Source of the DNA: Pyrinomonadaceae bacterium | GTDB taxonomy: Bacteria; Acidobacteriota; Blastocatellia; Pyrinomonadales; Pyrinomonadaceae | Assembly: GCA_035273425.1 (NCBI GenBank) | Contig: DATEPB010000058.1 | Span: forward strand, 44,590-108,589 | DNA: 64,000 nucleotides | Direction of reading: 5' to 3' | Shown here: positions 8,706 through 64,000 of the stretch, piece after piece | How the letters are laid out: each line of letters opens with the position of its first letter | Numbering within the stretch: position 1 is the stretch's first letter | Translations under genes and position numbers: made by a program | The notes under the pieces: generated by a model | The model's database searches: none | Told to the model about the DNA's origin: nothing | What the model saw: the letters and a program-made list of their open reading frames with translations, nothing else

Positions 8706-10781
8706 TCATCGGCTTTTTACTGCCGGGGCTTCAAACCACATCGTCGCCAGCGGCGGCAGGGTAACAACCGCTGAATACTCAAACCCATTCGCCGGAACTT
8801 TTTCAGCCGTAACCGTCTTCACAACCCCAAACCCGCCGCCACAGTATTTTTCATCATCCGTATTTACAATCTGTTGGTACTTCCCTGCTCTCGGTAGTCC
8901 CAGGCGATGATCTTCACGAACGATCGGGGAAAAGTTTCCAACGCAGATCAACTCACGGCCGGACGATTGACCACGACGAATAAATGAAACCACGTTGGCC
9001 GCGGCATTGTCGGCGTCGATCCATTGAAAGCCCGAAGCTTCGCCGTCGTTTTCCCACAACGCAGGCCGCTTTAGATAAAGCTTATTGAGATCTCTGACCA
9101 GTGTTTGAATTCCCTCGTGAATCGGCTTCTCCAGCAAGTGCCAATCGAGACTCTCTTCTTCATTCCATTCGCGCCATTGTCCAAACTCGCCACCCATGAA
9201 GAGCATCTTCTTGCCCGGGTGTGCCCACATGTATGCGTACAGCGCGCGGAGGTTCGCCAACTTTTGCCACTCTTCGCCGGGCATCTTGTTTAGTAACGAG
9301 CCCTTCATGTGAACGACTTCATCGTGCGACAACGGGAGAATAAAGTTTTCACTCCATGCGTAGATCAAACCAAACGTGAGCGCGTTGTGGTTGCCCTTCC
9401 GAAACAAAGGATCCGTTTGAAAATACTTGAGAGTGTCGTGCATCCAGCCCATGTTCCACTTGAAATCGAATCCCAGGCCGCCCGCATACACCGGGTGACT
9501 CACCATGGGCCAGGCTGTCGACTCCTCGGCGATCATCATCGTGCCCGGACACTCGCGATGAGTGGTTTGATTTAGCTCCTGGAGAAACGAGAGCGCCTCA
9601 AGATTCTCGCGGCCGCCCTGCTGATTTGGTTCCCACTCGCCTTCCTTCCGGCTGTAGTCGAGATAAAGCATCGAAGCCACCGCGTCCACGCGCAGCCCGT
9701 CAATGTGGAATTCCTTGAACCAATAAAGAGCGTTGGCCATGAGGAAGTTCCGCACCTGGTTACGGCCGTAGTTAAAGATGTAGGTACCCCAGTCGGGATG
9801 TTCACCCTTGCGTGGATCCAGGTGCTCGTAGAGCGCGGTCCCGTCAAACCGCGCAAGCGCAAACGCATCTTTGGGAAAATGCGCCGGCACCCAATCCATG
9901 ATTACGCCAATACCGCGTTGATGAAGGTGATCAACCAAATACCGCAGATCGTCTGGGGTGCCATAGCGTGCAGAAGGCGCGTAATAGTTGCTGACCTGGT
10001 AACCCCATGATGGTCCATATGGATGTTCCTTCAAGGGAAGAAACTCAACGTGTGTGTAGCCCGCTTCTTCAACATAGTCGGCGAGCACAAGCGCCATTTC
10101 TCGATAGGTAAAAGGTCGATTGTTCTCTTCGAGGTGACGCCGCCATGAGCCAAAATGGATCTCATAGATTGAGAGTGGTTGCCGGAAGTGTTCGCGACCT
10201 GCACGCTTCTTCATCCATCTCGAATCTCGAAACTTGTAGTTTGACTCGTAAACTATCGATGAAGTATTTGGCGGGGCCTCGGCAAAGCTGGCGTACGGAT
10301 CGGCCTTAAGAAATACAGGCAAACCCGGCGTTTTGATCTCGTACTTATAGAGTTCACCGGACTTCAGTTGCGGAACAAAAACTTCCCACACCCCAGAATC
10401 ACTAAGACGGTGCATTGGATTCTTTGCGCCATCCCACGCGTTGAAGCTCCCTACGACACTCACCCTCTCCGCGCTGGGCGCCCAAACTGCAAACGACACT
10501 CCCAAAACACCATCGTGATTAATTACATGCGCACCGAGTTTTTCGTAGATCCGTTCGTGCCGGCCTTCGCCAAACAGATGCAGATCGATTTCTCCAAGGA
10601 CTGGTGAGAACGAGGGTGGCAAATCTGAACCCTTAACTGGCGCGGGTGCTTTCGCTGTGCGACCACTAGCTGCTTTGACAGCCTTCGATGCATTCTTCTT
10701 TGGCTTTGATGGAGCTACAGTCTTCGCAGCAGTTTTAGAACGCTTCACTTTCTTCTCTTCGGTTTTTGCAAGCTTTGCCAT
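8706..10781 (-). CDS. glgB: 1,4-alpha-glucan branching enzyme (GH13) with Lys/Ala-rich N-terminal tail
   Basis: HIDGLRVDAVASMLY and MIAEESTAWP GH13 conserved regions; 691 aa. Confidence 0.9.
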   Translation of the reverse strand: MAKLAKTEEKKVKRSKTAAKTVAPSKPKKNASKAVKAASGRTAKAPAPVKGSDLPPSFSPVLGEIDLHLFGEGRHERIYEKLGAHVINHDGVLGVSFAVWAPSAERVSVVGSFNAWDGAKNPMHRLSDSGVWEVFVPQLKSGELYKYEIKTPGLPVFLKADPYASFAEAPPNTSSIVYESNYKFRDSRWMKKRAGREHFRQPLSIYEIHFGSWRRHLEENNRPFTYREMALVLADYVEEAGYTHVEFLPLKEHPYGPSWGYQVSNYYAPSARYGTPDDLRYLVDHLHQRGIGVIMDWVPAHFPKDAFALARFDGTALYEHLDPRKGEHPDWGTYIFNYGRNQVRNFLMANALYWFKEFHIDGLRVDAVASMLYLDYSRKEGEWEPNQQGGRENLEALSFLQELNQTTHRECPGTMMIAEESTAWPMVSHPVYAGGLGFDFKWNMGWMHDTLKYFQTDPLFRKGNHNALTFGLIYAWSENFILPLSHDEVVHMKGSLLNKMPGEEWQKLANLRALYAYMWAHPGKKMLFMGGEFGQWREWNEEESLDWHLLEKPIHEGIQTLVRDLNKLYLKRPALWENDGEASGFQWIDADNAAANVVSFIRRGQSSGRELICVGNFSPIVREDHRLGLPRAGKYQQIVNTDDEKYCGGGFGVVKTVTAEKVPANGFEYSAVVTLPPLATMWFEAPAVKSR

Positions 10782-10804
10782 TCGATTATCGTTTCCGAAA
10801 CGAT

Positions 10805-12358
10805 CTATCTGGTCACAAGTACCCGACCTGAATGGTCGAGCAACGGTTCGACCAGCTGCCTGTAAATGTCTGCCCCGTTTCCCATCTCCGTTCGATTGCT
10901 TTTGGCCTCGGCAAGCAGTTCAAGAAAGTCATTTCGCCGCGAAGGAAGGCCAAGCTGGGACATTAGATCGATCACTCGAGCCGCATACTTCAAGATCTGA
11001 ACCGGCTCGATACCAGAAATATCGTTGAAGAACCATCCACAACTGGCATACATCAACAAGGTGTTGCGCTGCATCTCCAGAAATGCGAGGGCTCTGGTTT
11101 CTTGTTCGCCTGTTAACTGAGCAGGAGCATGTTGATGAACAAAAGCTTCGCGCGCCGTCTCGTGGTTGAGCACTAATTCGATTGAACTGTCTCGGGCTGC
11201 CCATGGATCGATAAACAGTTCACCACGAACGGCTTCAAACTCGGCAGCAGCTTCATCCCGCAGAAAGTCCAGTGCCGTTCTCAATGGTCCACGCCACTTC
11301 TGGTTCCAGTGCGCTTCCGCGCCCGTGCTGCATCCGCAGTCACTGTTCCATCGCCCCACTCCGTGAACACAACTCCACGAACTGCCCTGCTCTTGAGTTC
11401 CATTGTTTAGTTCAACTTCGAATTGCGGCGCATGCTGCTCGAGGTACTCGCCGTAGTTCGTAACCCTATACCCCTGTAGAGGCGCTTCTACTTCGAGTGC
11501 ATAGGCGAGGCACATATCTCCAAATTTATGATGATGACCGTAGCTCTCCCCGTCTGTCGCCACATTTACCAGCGCGCCTGCGCCAGGTCGCGCAGCTCCA
11601 ATTCGGTCAACGAGCGCACCGCTTGAAGTCAACGCGTTGTCAAAAGCAATCGCTCCAGCCAGGGCTTGATCGTAGAAAAAAATGGCAATCGATCTGTTTG
11701 AACCATCGCGATGAAAATAGCGATACACAACCGTCACATCTAAAATTCCATTCTCGACGAGCTTCCATTCAGCAAGATCGCTCGTGACGCCGGATGATGA
11801 TTCACCCTTCAGCGGTCGCACGCGCCCAGCTTGATGTGGCGCGAGGATCACAAATTGAAGACCATGTTCAATCAGCACCCCCAGCACATCATCATTGCAA
11901 GCAGTTTCGGGCAGCCACATCGATTCAGCATCACGCTGAAACCGATGCCGAAAATCCTCTAGCCCCCAACGGACTTGCGTGATCAGGTCGCGACGATTGC
12001 ACAAAGGAAGGATCGGATGGCTGTAGGCTTGCGCTATGGCGTTGCCGTGTCCCCCGTGACGACCGACACTCTCAGCGTCGGCAGCCAGAATCCCCGCATA
12101 AGTTTCTGAGGCTTCTCGTTCAAGCCAGGACAGCAACGTCGGACCGAAGTCGAAACTGATGCGCGAGTAGTTATTGACCACTTTTTTCTGATCACCGTTC
12201 AGAACTTCTACGGCAGCGTTAGGTTGGTAACACTCGGCGGTGACTCGCTCGTTCCAATCATGAAACGGTGCTGCCGTCGGTTCGACATCAACAACGCCGG
12301 TCCATGGATTTTCGCGCGGTGGTTGGTAAAAGTGTCCGTGGATAATAAGCGACTTCAT
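10805..12358 (-). CDS. Glycoside hydrolase family 57 protein
   Basis: N-terminus MKSLIIHGHFYQPPRENPW is characteristic of GH57; 517 aa; adjacent to glgB. Confidence 0.8.
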   Translation of the reverse strand: MKSLIIHGHFYQPPRENPWTGVVDVEPTAAPFHDWNERVTAECYQPNAAVEVLNGDQKKVVNNYSRISFDFGPTLLSWLEREASETYAGILAADAESVGRHGGHGNAIAQAYSHPILPLCNRRDLITQVRWGLEDFRHRFQRDAESMWLPETACNDDVLGVLIEHGLQFVILAPHQAGRVRPLKGESSSGVTSDLAEWKLVENGILDVTVVYRYFHRDGSNRSIAIFFYDQALAGAIAFDNALTSSGALVDRIGAARPGAGALVNVATDGESYGHHHKFGDMCLAYALEVEAPLQGYRVTNYGEYLEQHAPQFEVELNNGTQEQGSSWSCVHGVGRWNSDCGCSTGAEAHWNQKWRGPLRTALDFLRDEAAAEFEAVRGELFIDPWAARDSSIELVLNHETAREAFVHQHAPAQLTGEQETRALAFLEMQRNTLLMYASCGWFFNDISGIEPVQILKYAARVIDLMSQLGLPSRRNDFLELLAEAKSNRTEMGNGADIYRQLVEPLLDHSGRVLVTR

Positions 12359-12497: not shown

Positions 12498-14198
12498 TTG
12501 CTTATGATTGGATTTGGTTCTGACGCTTTCATTGCGTCACTCGCCATCATCGGTATCGTCATCGTCGTGTCGGCGTTGCTCTCCGGCTTTATCGAACGAA
12601 GCGGCCTGCCGCAAGTCGCTGTATTCCTCGCGATCGGAGCTGCGCTTGGCCCAGCGGGCGTTGGCGTCGTCGATATTGGTCTGCAATCGCCATCGCTGCA
12701 CGTGGTAGCCACGCTTAGTCTTACCCTAGTGCTCTTCACCGATGCGGTGGCGCTTAATGTGTCAGAGGTGCGAAAGCATTGGACACTAGCGGTGAGATTA
12801 CTTGGGCCAGGAACGCTCTTATCAGCCGCCTTGGTCGCCTTTGCTGGCTGGTGGTTGCTTCGATTACCCGTGCCGGCTGCGGCGATCCTCGGCGCTGCCC
12901 TGGCGTCTACCGATCCGGTCCTGTTACGCGGTCTGCTGCGTCGAAAAGATATCGCGTCGAACACACGTCAGGCGTTACAACTCGAAAGCGGCCTTAACGA
13001 TGTGGTCTTGCTGCCGGTGGTAATCGTTGCGATGGCGTTCATGGGTGAGCGTGCACCGGGTGACGGGGCCGCATGGGCCAAGTTAGGTCTCAATCTATTC
13101 ATTCTTGGCCCAGGTGCAGGAGTCGCAGTTGGATTGGTCGCGGTGGCGGCCCTCGATCTGATCCGAAAGAAGATTGGCGTTCGACGTGACTATGAATCGC
13201 TTTACTCTCTTGGTATTGCGTTTTCTGCCTACGCAGCGGCCGAGGCCGTTCACGGCAGCGGCTTCCTCGCTGCCTTTGCGGCCGGCTTGACCATTGCCGC
13301 GCTCGACGTCGAACTCTGTGATTGCTTCCTTGAGTATGGAGCAGTCACAGCAGAGATGATGCTCCTATTTACTTTCGTCCTGTTTGGCAGTTCGCTGATC
13401 TGGACGGGATTTAGTGTCATCAGTGTGGCCACCCTAATCTTCGCAGCCTTCGTCATTCTCATTCGTCCTCCTGTGTACCTGCTCTCGCTATTGGGATCCA
13501 CAGTCGACCGGCGCGGACGTTTTCTAATCGCCTGGTTTGGGCCTCGAGGGCTTAGTTCGTTACTGCTTATTCTTTTGCCGATTTTTGCAGGCCTTCCCGG
13601 AGCCGAACAACTGTTCCCGATCTGTTCCCTCGTGGTCCTTCTGTCGGTCGTACTCCACGGCGGTTCGCCACTTGTGCTGGCACAAGTTGACCGGCGGCGA
13701 GCGCGGCATGAAACCGCAGCCGCAAATTTGTCCGACAACTCTGGACCAGCGCAACCGGCTTCATGTGTTGAGGGCAGCGCTCCAGATTGCGTCACGGGAA
13801 TTGAGAGTGCGCAAACTCCGACCGCTGAGGTGGAAAGTTTCACAGTTGGCCGGCACAGCCTTACGCTCGAAGAAGTTAAACGCCTGCAGCAGAGCGAGCA
13901 GCAGGTTTTTATTCTTGACGTTCGCACTGAACGGAGTCTCGACGACCGTCAGGCGCAAAGCGCGATTCGCGTTCCTCCAGATGAGGCGGTCAGTGTGGTC
14001 CGTCGACTGGGTTTGCTGAAGGAGGCGTGGCTCATCGCCTACTGCGCTTGACCAAACGAGGCTACCAGCGCCCGGGTGGCGCAGGAACTTCGACAGGCAG
14101 GATGGACCAAAGCACGCGCCCTCATCGGTGGATGGGCCGAGTGGCAGAAGTCTGGTGAACCGACTGAGTTAAGAATTGCCGACCCCGCGGCCGGTTAG
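12498..14198 (+). CDS. CPA1 cation/proton antiporter fused to a C-terminal rhodanese domain, with in-frame TGA (14049-14051) at the catalytic position; candidate selenoprotein or recent pseudogene
   Basis: ORF 12498..14051 has a multi-TM Na+/H+ exchanger-like region followed by a rhodanese start (VFILDVR...WLIAYCA). The same frame continues for 48 codons (PNEATSARVAQELRQAGWTKARALIGGWAEWQKSGEPTE...) to TAG 14196-14198. Confidence 0.6.
14065..14085 (+). promoter_or_regulatory. Candidate SECIS-like hairpin downstream of the in-frame UGA
   Basis: CCAGCGCC / CGGGU loop / GGCGCAGG: 7 bp with one A.A mismatch, starting 13 nt after the TGA. Confidence 0.35.
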
Positions 14199-14308
14199 CG
14201 TCGTTGTGCTGCATCGCGTTCATAGTTGCCAGTCGGGCGCTACGTGTTGTACATCTTTCTCTCACTTATTACTTCCGCTTAGCTTAGATTAGCTACCCGA
14301 CTGGAACG

Positions 14309-40569: not shown

Positions 40570-40830
40570 ATGAACATTGAACTTAAAGATCTATCGACCG
40601 CCGGCCCGGTCTACGCGCAAGTGCGCGAACAGATAGAAGGACATATCAGCAGTCAAACCGTCGCGCCGGGAGAATCTCTTCCTTCACCCGGCGTCCTCGC
40701 GCAAAAACTCTCGGTTGATAAAGGCGAGATCCAGCGAGCTTATTTCGAGCTCGAACAGTCAGGACTGTTGAAGAAAGAAACCACCAAAGATTTTCTGGGT
40801 CATCAGAAAATAACCTACCGCGTGGCCTGA
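40570..40830 (+). CDS. Small GntR-like winged-helix protein (DNA-binding domain only)
   Basis: 86 aa; LPSPGVLAQKLSVDKGEIQRAYFELEQSGLL resembles the GntR HTH. Confidence 0.5.
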   Translation: MNIELKDLSTAGPVYAQVREQIEGHISSQTVAPGESLPSPGVLAQKLSVDKGEIQRAYFELEQSGLLKKETTKDFLGHQKITYRVA

Positions 40831-40977
40831 GCCTCATCTGTGAAACCTCAAATGATGGGAGTTCACTGCGCGGCAGTACGCATTCCACTATTGTGCGCCA
40901 AAGCTCCCGCGCGTTCGAGCCCCGCCTTATGACTAAACCAATGCTCACGTGATATTCTTTTTTTCGTATTGAAAATC

Positions 40978-41062
<85 letters not shown>

Positions 41063-41205
41063 GTAAATCTTCACCCTACCGACTGACTAATACTCTGTGG
41101 ATAGTGCAGGTTCGTCACCGGCCTACCATGTAGCCGAGGTCAACTGGCTTTAAAACTGCCGTCGTCCTTCTCCTCTATTTGCCGACAACGTATCATTAAA
41201 CCAAA

Positions 41206-51583: not shown

Positions 51584-51779
51584 AAGGATGAAGGCGGAAG
51601 GATGAAGGATGAAAGCCTTTATGCTTCCGCTTTTTTGTGTCGCCCGATAAGCGGAATGGTCCACGAAATCACTCGAATACGCACTAATCTCTTTCTTGCT
51701 ACTTCCTCTAATTTCGTGGATCGTTCTTTCGCAGCTTGATCTCTTTAGCTTCATCCTTCATCCTTCAGCCTTCATCCTT
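51584..51779. repeat. Heptamer-array inverted repeat (AAGGATG unit) with nested CACGAAA-type hairpin
   Basis: AAGGATG AAGGCGG AAGGATG AAGGATG (51584-51611) faces CATCCTT CATCCTT CAGCCTT CATCCTT (51752-51779). Inner pair CCACGAAAT / ATTTCGTGG. Confidence 0.8.
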
Positions 51780-51785
51780 AACATC

Positions 51786-53219
51786 ATGCGTGTAGCCATA
51801 CTTGCATCTGAAGTTGTGCCTTTCGCCAAGACGGGCGGCCTTGCCGACGTGGCCGGTGCTTTGCCCAAAGCCCTCGCGAAGCAGGACGTTGATGCTCGCG
51901 TCATCCTGCCCTTGCATCAGCAAATCGATGAGAATCTCCTTAGCGACACGGTCATCGAAGACTTACCTGTTCCCTGGCGAGGCGGAACCAGACCCACCCG
52001 CGTTTTCCAGTCAGACGTAGCAGGGGCGCCGGCCTATCTAATTCATTCGCCCGAGTACTTCGACAAACCTTCAATCTACGGTTACTCCAATGACCATGAG
52101 CGCTACGCATTTTTCTCGCGTGCCGCGTTAACGCTGATGAAGCACTTGGATTGGCAACCGAACATAGTTCACGGCAACGACTGGCCGTGTGGCTTTGCAG
52201 CTGCTGAGTTTCGCGCTCGACGTCGTCACGATGAGTTCTTCCGTCAAAGCAAATCACTCTTCTCGATACACAACCTCGCCTACCAGGGTGCGTTTGATCC
52301 AAACGATCTCTGGTGGCTGGGTTTCGGTGAGTCGCCCGAGAAAGATGACTTCATGCTTAAGAGTATGGCATCGGCATTGAAGGCAGGACTCATCACCGCC
52401 GACGCCTTATCGACAGTTAGTCACCGTTACTCGCAGGAGATTCAAACGCCCGAGCAGGGTGCGGGACTCGACTGGTTGCTGCGGGCGCGTAAGGATCGGT
52501 TGGCCGGAATCACGAATGGTGTGGATTATGAATTGTGGAATCCGGAAACAGATCCACATATCGCCGCGAATTTTTCCTCCGCCGACCTTTCCGGAAAACT
52601 CGAGTGCAAACGCGACTTGCTCCGAAGGTTTGATTTGCATCAGGATACGCGAAGACCAATCATTGCGATCATTTCGCGGCTGGTTTCGCAGAAGGGATAC
52701 GACCTAATCCGGCAGCTCGCCGAACCCATTCTTGGTACTGGCGCGTTCTTCATTGCCCTCGGCGCAGGTGCCGCGGAGTATGAAGAGTTTTTGCAGGACT
52801 GGCATGATCGCGCTCCTCGCCAAGTGGGGATCTATAAAGGTTATGCCGGTGAACCTTTGGCGCATCAGATTGAGGCCGGCGCCGACATGTTTCTTATGCC
52901 GTCGCAGTATGAGCCGTGCGGTTTGAATCAGATGTACAGCATGCGATATGGGACCGTACCTATCGTTCGCGCGACCGGCGGACTCGACGACACGGTCCAG
53001 CAATTTATGCCTCAGCACGGTACTGGCAATGGCTTCAAGTTCTATCAGTACCATGCATCCGCTTTGCTTGAAAAAATTCGCGAAGCCCTTTACTTTTATG
53101 GCAAGCCCGAGGCATGGCAACGCATTCAGTTGAACGGCATGGCAGTCGACAATTCCTGGGAAGCCGCAGCGCAGAAATATGTCCAGCTCTACCAGGAAAT
53201 AATCGATCTGCCGAATTAA
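51786..53219 (+). CDS. glgA: Glycogen synthase
   Basis: MRVAILASEVVPFAKTGGLADV N-terminus (KTGGL motif). The start was set at ATG 51786. Confidence 0.9.
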   Translation: MRVAILASEVVPFAKTGGLADVAGALPKALAKQDVDARVILPLHQQIDENLLSDTVIEDLPVPWRGGTRPTRVFQSDVAGAPAYLIHSPEYFDKPSIYGYSNDHERYAFFSRAALTLMKHLDWQPNIVHGNDWPCGFAAAEFRARRRHDEFFRQSKSLFSIHNLAYQGAFDPNDLWWLGFGESPEKDDFMLKSMASALKAGLITADALSTVSHRYSQEIQTPEQGAGLDWLLRARKDRLAGITNGVDYELWNPETDPHIAANFSSADLSGKLECKRDLLRRFDLHQDTRRPIIAIISRLVSQKGYDLIRQLAEPILGTGAFFIALGAGAAEYEEFLQDWHDRAPRQVGIYKGYAGEPLAHQIEAGADMFLMPSQYEPCGLNQMYSMRYGTVPIVRATGGLDDTVQQFMPQHGTGNGFKFYQYHASALLEKIREALYFYGKPEAWQRIQLNGMAVDNSWEAAAQKYVQLYQEIIDLPN

Positions 53220-62809: not shown

Positions 62810-63691
62810 TTAAGAAAGTATTAGTGGTGAAAGCGAGGCTTCAAACTCAGCCGGCGGCAGGTAGCCGATGGCCGAGTGAAGTCGCTTCCGATTATAGACC
62901 GCTTCAATGAAATGCTGGATCGAGGCCAACACTTCGGCGAGCGTTTCGTAGTCGTTCATGTAAACCTCTTCGTACTTGAGGGTGCGCATGAACCTTTCGG
63001 CCTTGGCGTTGTCATAAGGGTTGCCGGTGCGGCTCATGCTGATCTGGATCTGGTGTTCGAGCAAAAGGGCGACGTAATCGGCGGCCGCGTACTGCACCCC
63101 GCGATCGGAATGATGCATCAGCCCCGGTTCAATGGTGCGTGTTTGCAAAGCCATGCGTAAGGCCGCCAGCGTCAGTTGCGTGTCGATGTGACGAGAAAGC
63201 GCCCAGCCGATGCAGCGGCGACTATAAGCATCCAGGATCACGGCGAGATAGACGAACTCACGCCGCAGTCGGATGTAGGTAATGTCAGACACCCAGAGTT
63301 GATTGATGTTTGAAAGTTCCAACCCGCGCGCCAGGTTGGGATAGACCGTCAGCCGGTGATTAGAGTCGGTCGTAGGCACGAAGGCCTTCCGCCGCAAACA
63401 AAGCAGATTGTCTTCGCGCAGCAGCCGCAAAACGCGCTTATGATTGACTATCACCCCACGCCGGTGCAGTTCTGCGGTGATCGGCCGATAACCGTAAGAG
63501 CGCATCTCCAAAGCTACGTTCTGGATCTGTGCCCGTATTTCGACGTCGTCGTTGGACCAGGATGAATCAGGCGAATGCAAATGGCGAAAGATGGTCGACC
63601 GCGAGAGCCCGACCGCCTCGCCGAGCGATCTAATGGCTCGCTCGGCGGTCGGTCTCTCTGCTAGTTCCTTTTGCAGTAGTTCCATGATCAA
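62810..63691 (-). CDS. IS3 transposase OrfB (DDE integrase core)
   Basis: HSDRGVQYAA and GNPYDNAKAERF motifs. The frame is open upstream to the slippery site. Confidence 0.9.
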   Translation of the reverse strand: MIMELLQKELAERPTAERAIRSLGEAVGLSRSTIFRHLHSPDSSWSNDDVEIRAQIQNVALEMRSYGYRPITAELHRRGVIVNHKRVLRLLREDNLLCLRRKAFVPTTDSNHRLTVYPNLARGLELSNINQLWVSDITYIRLRREFVYLAVILDAYSRRCIGWALSRHIDTQLTLAALRMALQTRTIEPGLMHHSDRGVQYAAADYVALLLEHQIQISMSRTGNPYDNAKAERFMRTLKYEEVYMNDYETLAEVLASIQHFIEAVYNRKRLHSAIGYLPPAEFEASLSPLILS

Positions 63692-63714
63692 TTGCTGTGC
63701 TTGCCGCGGGCTGC

Positions 63715-64000
63715 TTAGCTCTCGGTTTCCAGCCTCTGCAAAAGCTTTTTTAAAAAGTCGTTCTCCATGGTGAGCCGGCCCACCATGCGCTCCAGCTCGT
63801 TGGTGCGGGCTTCGTCAGTGTAAGCGTGGCCACGACCGGCGAACGCGCGATCTTTATATTGTCGCAGTTCGCGGCGCCACTTTGAGATCGTGTTGTCGCT
63901 GATTTGATATTCGCGAGCTACTTGCGCCTGGCTCTTGCCGGCCTCGACCTCGCGTATGACCTGGAGCTTGAACTCGCGGGTGAATGTGCGGCGTTTGAGC
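63715..64000 (-). CDS. IS3 transposase OrfA (HTH), N-terminal few residues outside the window
   Basis: Hand translation: LKRRTFTREFKLQVIREVEAGKSQAQVAREYQISDNTISKWRREL...MENDFLKKLLQRLETES, with stop TAA at 63715-63717. Confidence 0.85.
   Translation of the reverse strand, partial: LKRRTFTREFKLQVIREVEAGKSQAQVAREYQISDNTISKWRRELRQYKDRAFAGRGHAYTDEARTNELERMVGRLTMENDFLKKLLQRLETES
63745..63751 (-). promoter_or_regulatory. Programmed -1 frameshift heptamer A AAA AAG
   Basis: In the orfA frame the sequence reads TT-A AAA AAG. A -1 slip reads KKAFAEAGNRELSSPRQAQQLIMELLQKE, joining the orfB frame. Confidence 0.7.

Follow-up and report, generated by a model that had tools for sequence, protein, structure and literature searches.

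Does the TGA that closes a publicly annotated cation:proton antiporter gene end the protein, or is it read as selenocysteine (Sec) in the middle of a rhodanese domain that continues beyond it? The gene lies on the forward strand of a 64,000-nucleotide stretch of a Pyrinomonadaceae bacterium (assembly GCA_035273425.1, contig DATEPB010000058.1, positions 44,590 to 108,589), called the window below, and all coordinates are those of the window. The triplet occupies 14049-14051 (+). Comparison with related genes makes it very likely that this UGA is read as Sec by SelB and Sec-tRNA(Sec) by way of a hairpin at 14068-14082, which would yield an antiporter-rhodanese selenoprotein of 564 residues. By themselves, the fold z-score of the hairpin and the 48-codon frame beyond the TGA do not exceed chance; the case is made by comparing 83 related genes.

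The open reading frame (ORF) begins with TTG at 12498 and reaches the TGA at 14049-14051, where its product ends in ...EAWLIAYCA. The public gene call for the same ORF starts at ATG 12504, stops at 14051 and describes a 515-residue 'cation:proton antiporter'. The corresponding database protein (P0001; 100% identical, 515 aa) is the window's own product, from a 213,551-bp contig of a Pyrinomonadaceae metagenome-assembled genome (MAG). Past the TGA, the frame stays open for 48 codons (PNEATSARVAQELRQAGWTKARALIGGWAEWQKSGEPTELRIADPAAG) to a TAG at 14196-14198 (+). An open frame of 48 codons is by itself not rare. With the stop replaced by Cys, Pfam places Na_H_Exchanger (PF00999; E 1e-40, 140 bits) on residues 22-388 and Rhodanese (PF00581) on residues 454-549, the latter covering profile positions 1-101 of 102 and spanning the TGA. 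The rhodanese scores are 32.8 and 37.3 bits against a gathering threshold of 22.2, and the whole domain is matched only when the UGA is read through. Database proteins that end at the TGA carry the PF00999 annotation alone. The Pfam matches agree with the initial annotation of this DNA, made from the letters alone, which had described ORF 12498-14051 as a CPA1-type (cation/proton antiporter 1) membrane domain followed by the first half of a rhodanese fold and the 48-codon tail as the missing second half.

Taken as a whole, the locus is best explained, with a likelihood scarcely below that of the recoding itself, as one gene at 12504-14198 (+), with 564 codons (Met1-Gly564, Sec516) and a TAG stop. 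It would encode an NhaP-type antiporter (residues 22-388; 12567-13667 (+)), a flexible linker of about 60 residues modeled with low confidence, and a C-terminal rhodanese-like domain (residues 454-549; 13863-14150 (+)) with a Cys514-Ala515-Sec516 loop, Sec being inserted at the UGA. The rhodanese assignment draws on PF00581, the NCBIfam family NF041203 and an AlphaFold2 (AF2) model. The TAG is the probable true stop of the selenoprotein, and homologues end 42-70 codons past the UGA with variable tails.

The TGA is a conserved feature of this gene rather than a peculiarity of one contig. Two sets of relatives were compared. A protein search gave P0001 and 119 relatives at 60-81% identity as the 120 best database proteins, and a scan of one genome per GTDB species gave 426 relatives, the best 80 of which were analyzed. 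Exactly at the TGA position, in ...[YF]C[AT], 111 of the 120 proteins end. The other nine continue as ...YCA-C-(S/P)(N/H)(E/D)... into a full rhodanese domain, with a TGC or TGT codon in the column. Among the best 80 of the 426 GTDB relatives, the column holds TGA in 79 and TGC in one, with neither TAA nor TAG in any. Five additional metagenomic genes, much more divergent, all have the TGA and an open tail too, and the set for the hairpin comparison comprised 83 sequences. The frame past the TGA is open for 42-70 codons among the GTDB loci and reads xNEATSARVAQELRQAGW..ARAL.GGW..W. Of 84 homologous TGA-form genes, 82 have no stop in this frame for at least 42 codons, and the remaining two run into a cut or break at a contig end. 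An alignment of homologous fusions, proposed in the initial annotation as a check, thus returned TGA in nearly every species, Cys codons in the remaining forms, and a hairpin that tracks the TGA.

Most TGA-form loci come from MAGs of Pyrinomonadaceae and Blastocatellia. TGA-form genes with the hairpin were also seen at 58-63% identity in MAGs labeled Syntrophobacteraceae, 'delta proteobacterium', Chloroflexia, Binatia and Nitrospinota (loci L052, L053, L059, L062, L063, L075, L079 and L030). These reflect either a cross-phylum distribution, gene transfer, or contamination during binning. As a separate observation, most TGA-form genes have C as the base after the UGA (14052; column 10 of alignment A4), and most of the others have A. 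UGA-C is a weak termination context in E. coli and would favor recoding.

Genes with a Cys codon in place of the UGA provide a natural comparison. Their nucleotide sequences were examined in six distinct genes (L066, L081-L086), with TGC or TGT in the UGA column. The Cys-form loci have the same neighbors as the window, namely genes for an acyltransferase, a GntR regulator and an S9-family peptidase. Because of this common neighborhood, the Cys forms are regarded as orthologous Sec/Cys replacements. A crude UPGMA (unweighted pair group method with arithmetic mean) tree restricted to the transporter domain scatters the nine Cys forms over at least four positions, of which three lie inside Sec clades. 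Replacement between Sec and Cys is the usual dynamic of selenoprotein families.

The element that would direct Sec insertion lies just downstream of the UGA. A hairpin of 8 bp at 14065-14085 (CCAGCGCC/CGGGU/GGCGCAGG) had been described in the initial annotation and is indeed present in the window, where only the inner five base pairs proved to be conserved. This putative core of a selenocysteine insertion sequence (SECIS) consists of the 5' arm GCGCC (14068-14072), the apical loop CGGGU (14073-14077) and the 3' arm GGCGC (14078-14082), with the loop starting 21 nt past the UGA. The RNAalifold consensus is the same 5-bp stem (14068-14072/14078-14082) with a CGKGU loop, and all 400 core-stem cells over the 83 sequences are paired. 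Compensatory changes turn alignment pair 27-39 from C-G to U-A in L037, L041 and L088, and pair 30-36 from C-G to A-U in L090 through two synonymous substitutions. Three sequences have G-U in place of G-C in the core stem. None of 500 shuffles matched the observed pairing or covariation score, and slid registers pair at 20-67%. In the window, the fold extends to outer pairs at 14065-66/14084-85 and a lower helix at 14057-61/14088-92 (together 14057-14092 (+)), which are not consistently conserved. Pairing at outer pair 24-42 is missing from 28 of 80 sequences, position 25-41 is almost always A·A, and the pairs of the lower helix are unpaired in 33-37 of 75 sequences (~45%). The full 8-bp hairpin with the lower helix was for this reason dropped as a conserved element, its outer pairs and lower helix being inconsistently kept. 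In L089 and L090, the A·A mismatch of the window is replaced by A-U, and L090 also has G-C instead of C-G at the next pair.

Codon usage over the stem points in the same direction. The stem codons are fixed as Ser AGC (76/78), Ala GCC (78/78), Val GTG (78/78) and Ala GCG (74/76); elsewhere, the synonymous entropy of Ala and Val codons is 1.5-1.9 bits. Only one position is free to vary, namely the wobble base of the Arg codon at mid-loop, which is always either G or T. All six distinct Cys-codon genes have a broken stem, with GCGGC, GCGGT or GCATC as the 5' arm, and vary freely at synonymous positions that are frozen in the TGA forms. At codon +7 (14070-14072, the inner 5' arm), Ala/GCC is invariant in the TGA forms (78/78), and all six Cys forms have Gly (GGC or GGT) or Ile (ATC) instead. 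Since the Cys forms replace Ala at +7, the loss of the SECIS is also tracked by an amino-acid difference. The comparison shows, at the level of aligned sequences, a 5-bp hairpin that is under RNA-level selection in the UGA forms only.

The hairpin also resembles known bacterial SECIS (bSECIS) elements. The published bSECIS model calls for an apical loop of 3-9 nt, an upper stem of 4-16 bp, a minimum free energy (MFE) of at most -7.5 kcal/mol, a G among the first two loop positions, in most cases with G or U after it, and a UGA-to-loop distance of 16-37 nt (PMC13188914). On every count, the element falls within these bounds, with a 5-nt loop, a stem of at least 5 bp, 21-nt spacing and MFE values of -16.2 and -18.4 kcal/mol. 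The second loop position is G, followed only by G or U, in 83 of 83 sequences. Like elements of the E. coli fdhF type and the consensus of Zhang and Gladyshev 2005 (via PMC13188914), it is a hairpin that forms in the coding region immediately 3' of the UGA, its small apical loop has a G before G or U, and its spacing lies inside the 16-37 nt range. The expectation that position and G/U loop would suit a bacterial SECIS was therefore borne out, with constraint in the TGA forms and loss in the Cys forms besides. Going by the established bacterial pathway, SelB carrying Sec-tRNA(Sec) would bind the hairpin on the translating mRNA, and Sec would be inserted at the UGA in competition with release factor 2 (RF2).

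The sequence beyond the UGA evolves as if it were translated. Pooled Nei-Gojobori estimates for 78 genes gave a proportion of synonymous differences (pS) of 0.66 and a ratio of nonsynonymous to synonymous proportions (pN/pS) of 0.36 for the 22 codons before the TGA. The corresponding values are 0.31 and 0.11 over the hairpin (codons +1 to +12) and 0.70 and 0.26 over the tail (codons +13 to +40). Synonymous change is halved over the hairpin codons only. Judged by these substitution patterns, the tail is under purifying selection and evolves like the upstream coding sequence.

The rhodanese domain has a close relative among known selenoproteins. Five Sec-containing rhodanese forms have been distinguished, of which form 3 has the motif CxU and corresponds to NF041203 (PMC13188914), a family that is listed in a second review too (PMC9312934). 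NF041203, 'rhodanese_LYCAU, rhodanese-related (seleno)protein', is the best NCBIfam match of the domain in the window (E 1e-24, positions 21-124 of 126). Both share a rhodanese fold, an alternation between Sec and Cys, and ...YCA-U with a Cys two residues before the Sec (I-A-Y-C-A-U in the window). The family consists of stand-alone proteins of about 126 aa, whereas the domain in the window forms the C-terminal end of a 564-aa membrane transporter. A Sec-bearing domain of this type is thus already known as a stand-alone protein, and its fusion to a CPA1 antiporter is a new architectural variant. The word 'antiporter' is absent from both reviews (PMC13188914 and PMC9312934), and neither 'antiporter' nor 'exchanger' occurs in the Global Ocean Sampling (GOS) survey. 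Full-text literature searches returned no paper linking a selenoprotein to a cation/proton antiporter, and literature searches returned nothing relevant on Sec use in Pyrinomonadaceae or Blastocatellia. Reviews and searches agree with the initial annotation, in which Sec-rhodaneses were taken as known and a transporter fusion was not. The Sec transport proteins listed so far are a mercuric transport protein, an E1-E2 cation ATPase, YeeE/YedE, SaoP/SaoB/SaoX and the SO_0444 Cu/Zn efflux protein (PMC13188914). Like the present candidate, these are selenoproteins associated with membrane transport and predicted by comparative genomics. None of them is a secondary antiporter of the CPA family, and their Sec is thought to bind metals or substrate; the Sec described here would instead sit in an appended rhodanese domain.

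A stand-alone Sec form within the same clade was considered and rejected. The candidate (P0122, 78 aa, on the 151-kb contig L087) is a fragment in an indel-ridden assembly with the same synteny. A word-indexed search with the rhodanese domain alone returned only fragments of the fusion.

Several results count against Sec decoding at this locus. A search of the 64-kb window and of related loci totalling about 950 kb found no selA, selB, selD or tRNA-Sec, and no conclusion follows for the remainder of the genome. Specifically, Pfam searches of all 49 long ORFs of the window detected no SelA, SelB or SelD, the only tRNAs that ARAGORN and Rfam found in the window were tRNA-Leu and tRNA-Lys, and ARAGORN detected no tRNA-Sec in 86 loci plus the window (~950 kb). 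For the 62-nt window stretch, the fold z-score against shuffles is -0.72 and not significant. Covariation consists of few independent events, perhaps in 3-4 lineages among the 83 sequences. Against NF041203, the full protein scores 82.7 bits and the isolated domain 86.8, both below the curated cut-off of 115. Rfam returned no SECIS or other family at gathering threshold for the hairpin region of the window, and a search of 13950-14250 with E up to 10 returned nothing but one chance match to sucC. The curated Rfam models have no sequence similarity to the predicted element, whose conserved stem is only 5 bp, and many putative bacterial SECIS elements do not resemble one another (PMC13188914). 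Selenium incorporation at this codon is a prediction.

The UGA might be read through without being read as Sec. Candidate mechanisms are a tRNA(Cys) opal suppressor resembling tRNA-Sec, an acidobacterial 'allo-tRNA', or near-cognate read-through stimulated by the hairpin. Such suppressors, both tRNA(Cys) opal suppressors of the SelC* type and allo-tRNA suppressors, the latter in Acidobacteria, have been described (PMC5389517). The lack of Sec machinery in the window and the ~950 kb of related loci would suit this explanation, as would the acceptability of Cys at the position, given that Cys orthologues exist. The hairpin, however, fits a SelB-type bSECIS in loop size, G[G|U] motif and spacing, and the closest curated family is a selenoprotein. 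Repeated switches from TGA to TGC accompanied by loss of the hairpin likewise correspond to the usual Sec/Cys dynamic. TGA is moreover an ordinary stop for 14 of the 49 long ORFs of the window, which indicates that it is not reassigned in this genome and argues against a general suppressor. The remaining 13 TGA-terminated ORFs have no convincing in-frame extension, and no further selenoprotein candidate emerged in the window. Read-through without Sec is hence improbable.

Still less credible is true termination at the TGA, with the downstream conservation stemming from a separate small ORF or from a regulatory RNA such as an attenuator or terminator. A GTG at 14076 does open a 40-codon ORF in the same frame, and the hairpin is G+C-rich. 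Yet neither half of the rhodanese domain is a folding unit, profile positions 1-101 are covered only across the TGA, and the Cys orthologues are continuous proteins. Codon-position entropy downstream of the TGA is that of coding sequence in the same frame, and no T-run follows the hairpin. For a single sequence, the default would be that the TGA at 14049-14051 reflects a fresh nonsense mutation, a decayed gene, or a mistake in sequencing or assembly, in line with public annotation and with visible errors on some related contigs (L087, L054). This alternative, named in part in the initial annotation, has next to no probability left and is refuted by the comparative data, because the same TGA recurs in 79 of 80 species genomes and five divergent genes, which stem from many studies and assemblers, purifying selection acts on the tail, and decay would not always produce TGA nor be expected to leave a conserved hairpin. 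Of the two contigs, L087 is a 151-kb ENA contig with genes shattered into small ORFs, which suggests indel errors, and L054 diverges about 18 nt past the TGA near the contig end, which suggests a chimeric end. Errors of both types could mislead automated selenoprotein screens.

With Sec as the preferred reading of the UGA, its place within the rhodanese domain can be considered. The initial annotation had put the Sec in the column of the catalytic Cys. The Sec reading itself is supported, but the column is probably wrong, and Cys514 is favored. The two ways of aligning the motif disagree on the catalytic column. An ungapped alignment back from the helix pairs U-PNEAT-S with C-GGGFR-S of 6mxv and favors Sec in the catalytic column, and the distance from U to the G[WYF] motif is 17 residues, as in canonical rhodaneses among the representative matches. 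HMMER alignment to a solved rhodanese instead sets the catalytic 'YC' of the template on Cys514, with a two-residue gap opposite A-U. The wider subfamily is mostly C-x-C, and members with a single Cys always keep the first (YCAW, YCSD, YCSS, YCDD). The Cys514 codon (TGC, 14043-14045 (+)) is invariant in all homologues. In the AF2 model of a Cys orthologue (P0027), the rhodanese domain has a predicted local distance difference test (pLDDT) score of ~90 and the loop block of ~80, with a central strand WLIAY, a loop C509-A-C511-S-N-E and a helix from A515. Since the strand ends at Tyr, the first Cys takes loop position 1 and the Sec column loop position 3. On balance, the modeled loop, the HMMER alignment and the subfamily pattern suggest that the canonical catalytic role probably belongs to Cys514, with Sec516 as the second member of a C-x-U motif. 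A selenenylsulfide between Cys514 and Sec516 is plausible.

The antiporter core appears to be functional, going by its intact and invariant TD, ND and GPRG motifs. By sequence, PaNhaP (4cz8/4cza) is closest (E 3e-7), and PaNhaP and MjNhaP1 are the top Foldseek matches with target-length normalized TM-scores of 0.53-0.59, the membrane model being of no more than moderate confidence. At the ion site, the motifs ASTDP, ESGLND and FGPRG match PaNhaP in the alignment and do not vary among homologues, with T136-D137, S162...N165-D166 and GPRG intact in the window. Both PaNhaP and MjNhaP1 (4czb) share the Na_H_Exchanger domain and the TD, S...ND and GPRG motifs; archaeal NhaP proteins lack a C-terminal domain and Sec, however, and are only ~21% identical to the antiporter here. 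The best NCBIfam antiporter models are NF003716 (151 bits, cut-off 355) and NF003715 (149 bits, cut-off 309), both short of an equivalog-level call of the substrate as K+/H+ or Na+/H+. In the NCBIfam models of NhaP2-type K+/H+ antiporters (499-595 positions), only the first 387-388 positions match, so the C-terminal part of these models seems to be replaced here by the linker and the rhodanese domain.

Structural neighbors also include SLC9C1, SOS1 and KefC. These are CPA exchangers controlled by C-terminal cytoplasmic domains, and KefC is gated by glutathione and electrophile adducts. KefC with its KTN/RCK domain, SLC9C1 with a cyclic-nucleotide domain, SOS1, and NhaP2/CvrA with TrkA_C all have a CPA core followed by a C-terminal soluble domain. 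The appended domain of the present protein is a rhodanese rather than an RCK or cyclic-nucleotide-binding domain, and the resemblance is one of architecture only. KefC gating nevertheless provides a conceptual precedent for gating based on a thiol or selenol. The C-x-C rhodanese subtype, moreover, caps the C-terminus in other Na_H_Exchanger proteins and in DedA/VTT membrane proteins. By analogy, the tail could be a cytoplasmic regulatory module that stands in place of the C-terminal domains of related antiporters and modulates cation/proton exchange, a proposal to which we give somewhat less than an even chance. The Cys514-x-Sec516 pair might cycle between selenol/thiol and selenenylsulfide or carry sulfane sulfur. 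The C-x-U tail would then couple cation/proton exchange to redox, persulfide or electrophile status. Two results lend no direct support to a regulatory tail. In the AF2 model of P0027, the membrane domain has pLDDT of 50-85 and the linker below 50, leaving no domain-domain interface readable, and the gene neighborhood gives no functional hint.

A tail that is an enzyme in its own right is the less likely alternative, tentative at best. This would accept the Sec and make the tail a membrane-tethered sulfur- or selenium-transferase or reductase, acting on persulfide, thiosulfate or selenium species, and not a regulator of the antiporter. Rhodanese domains are classically sulfurtransferases, and the relatives of this domain include rhodaneses of the MoeB/MoeZ and GlpE types. 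Stand-alone proteins of ~100-170 aa with this C-x-C subtype are common, so it can work without a transporter. Its fusion to DedA/VTT proteins is a further point for this view. The DedA/VTT fusions (P0212, P0217, P0280), reading YCSCPNE[VA][TS]SAR..., represent a second membrane-protein partner of the module. An enzymatic tail is at odds with the lack of sulfur- or selenium-metabolism genes in the neighborhood, with the established role of CPA transporters in moving monovalent cations and not sulfur or selenium species, and with a domain position that matches the regulatory tails of related antiporters.

Other features of the window stand apart from the selenoprotein gene. Directly upstream and on the opposite strand lie genes for a glgB-like branching enzyme and a GH57/DUF3536 protein (8706-12358 (-)), and a glgA-type starch synthase gene follows 37 kb downstream (51696-53219 (+)). 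The glgB and GH57/DUF3536 neighbors recur at L087; nothing obvious connects these glycogen and glucan genes functionally with the antiporter. Between genes for an Orn/Arg decarboxylase and an amino-acid permease, and not near any rRNA, lies a gene that encodes a '23S rRNA-intervening sequence protein' (PF05635; 28234-28620 (+)). An ORF of 142 aa (40646-41074 (-)) overlaps tRNA-Leu(TAG) (40978-41062 (+)), has no Pfam match and is probably not a gene. The end of the window (62810-63999 (-)) is occupied by an IS3-type transposase pair, consisting of an rve integrase-core ORF (62810-63691) and an HTH_Tnp_1 ORF (63715-63999).

The comparative data point to a genuine and widespread selenoprotein family that is consistently mis-annotated. 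More than 100 public gene models from MAGs would be systematically truncated at the UGA and named plain 'cation:proton antiporter', including NCBI's own model for this very gene (P0001). They could be corrected by a rule that looks for a CPA1 domain, then ...YCA-TGA, then an AGCGCC-CGKGU-GGCGC hairpin. The prediction extends the range of prokaryotic selenoproteins by a membrane antiporter architecture. The hairpin is a compact and strongly constrained element (5 bp and 5 nt) that has natural compensatory variants and decayed counterparts in the Cys forms, which makes it useful for SECIS models. The natural Sec/Cys pairs, up to ~87% identical, are ready-made controls.

A C-x-U rhodanese tethered to an ion exchanger is a candidate redox or sulfane-sulfur gate of ion transport. 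Possibly, though we consider it doubtful, the protein is the first selenium-dependent secondary ion transporter, an antiporter gated by a Cys514-x-Sec516 selenenylsulfide or perselenide switch that links K+/Na+/pH homeostasis to redox, sulfane-sulfur or electrophile stress. If so, selenium scarcity would lead to RF2 termination at the UGA and to an unregulated antiporter lacking its tail, and selenium supply would itself be an input. The family suggests that Sec is in routine use among Pyrinomonadaceae and Blastocatellia, a major lineage of soil bacteria unmentioned in the selenoprotein reviews and surveys cited. The gene is near-universal in these abundant soil Acidobacteriota, and its recoding, if true, would represent a large and unrecognized use of Sec in soils.

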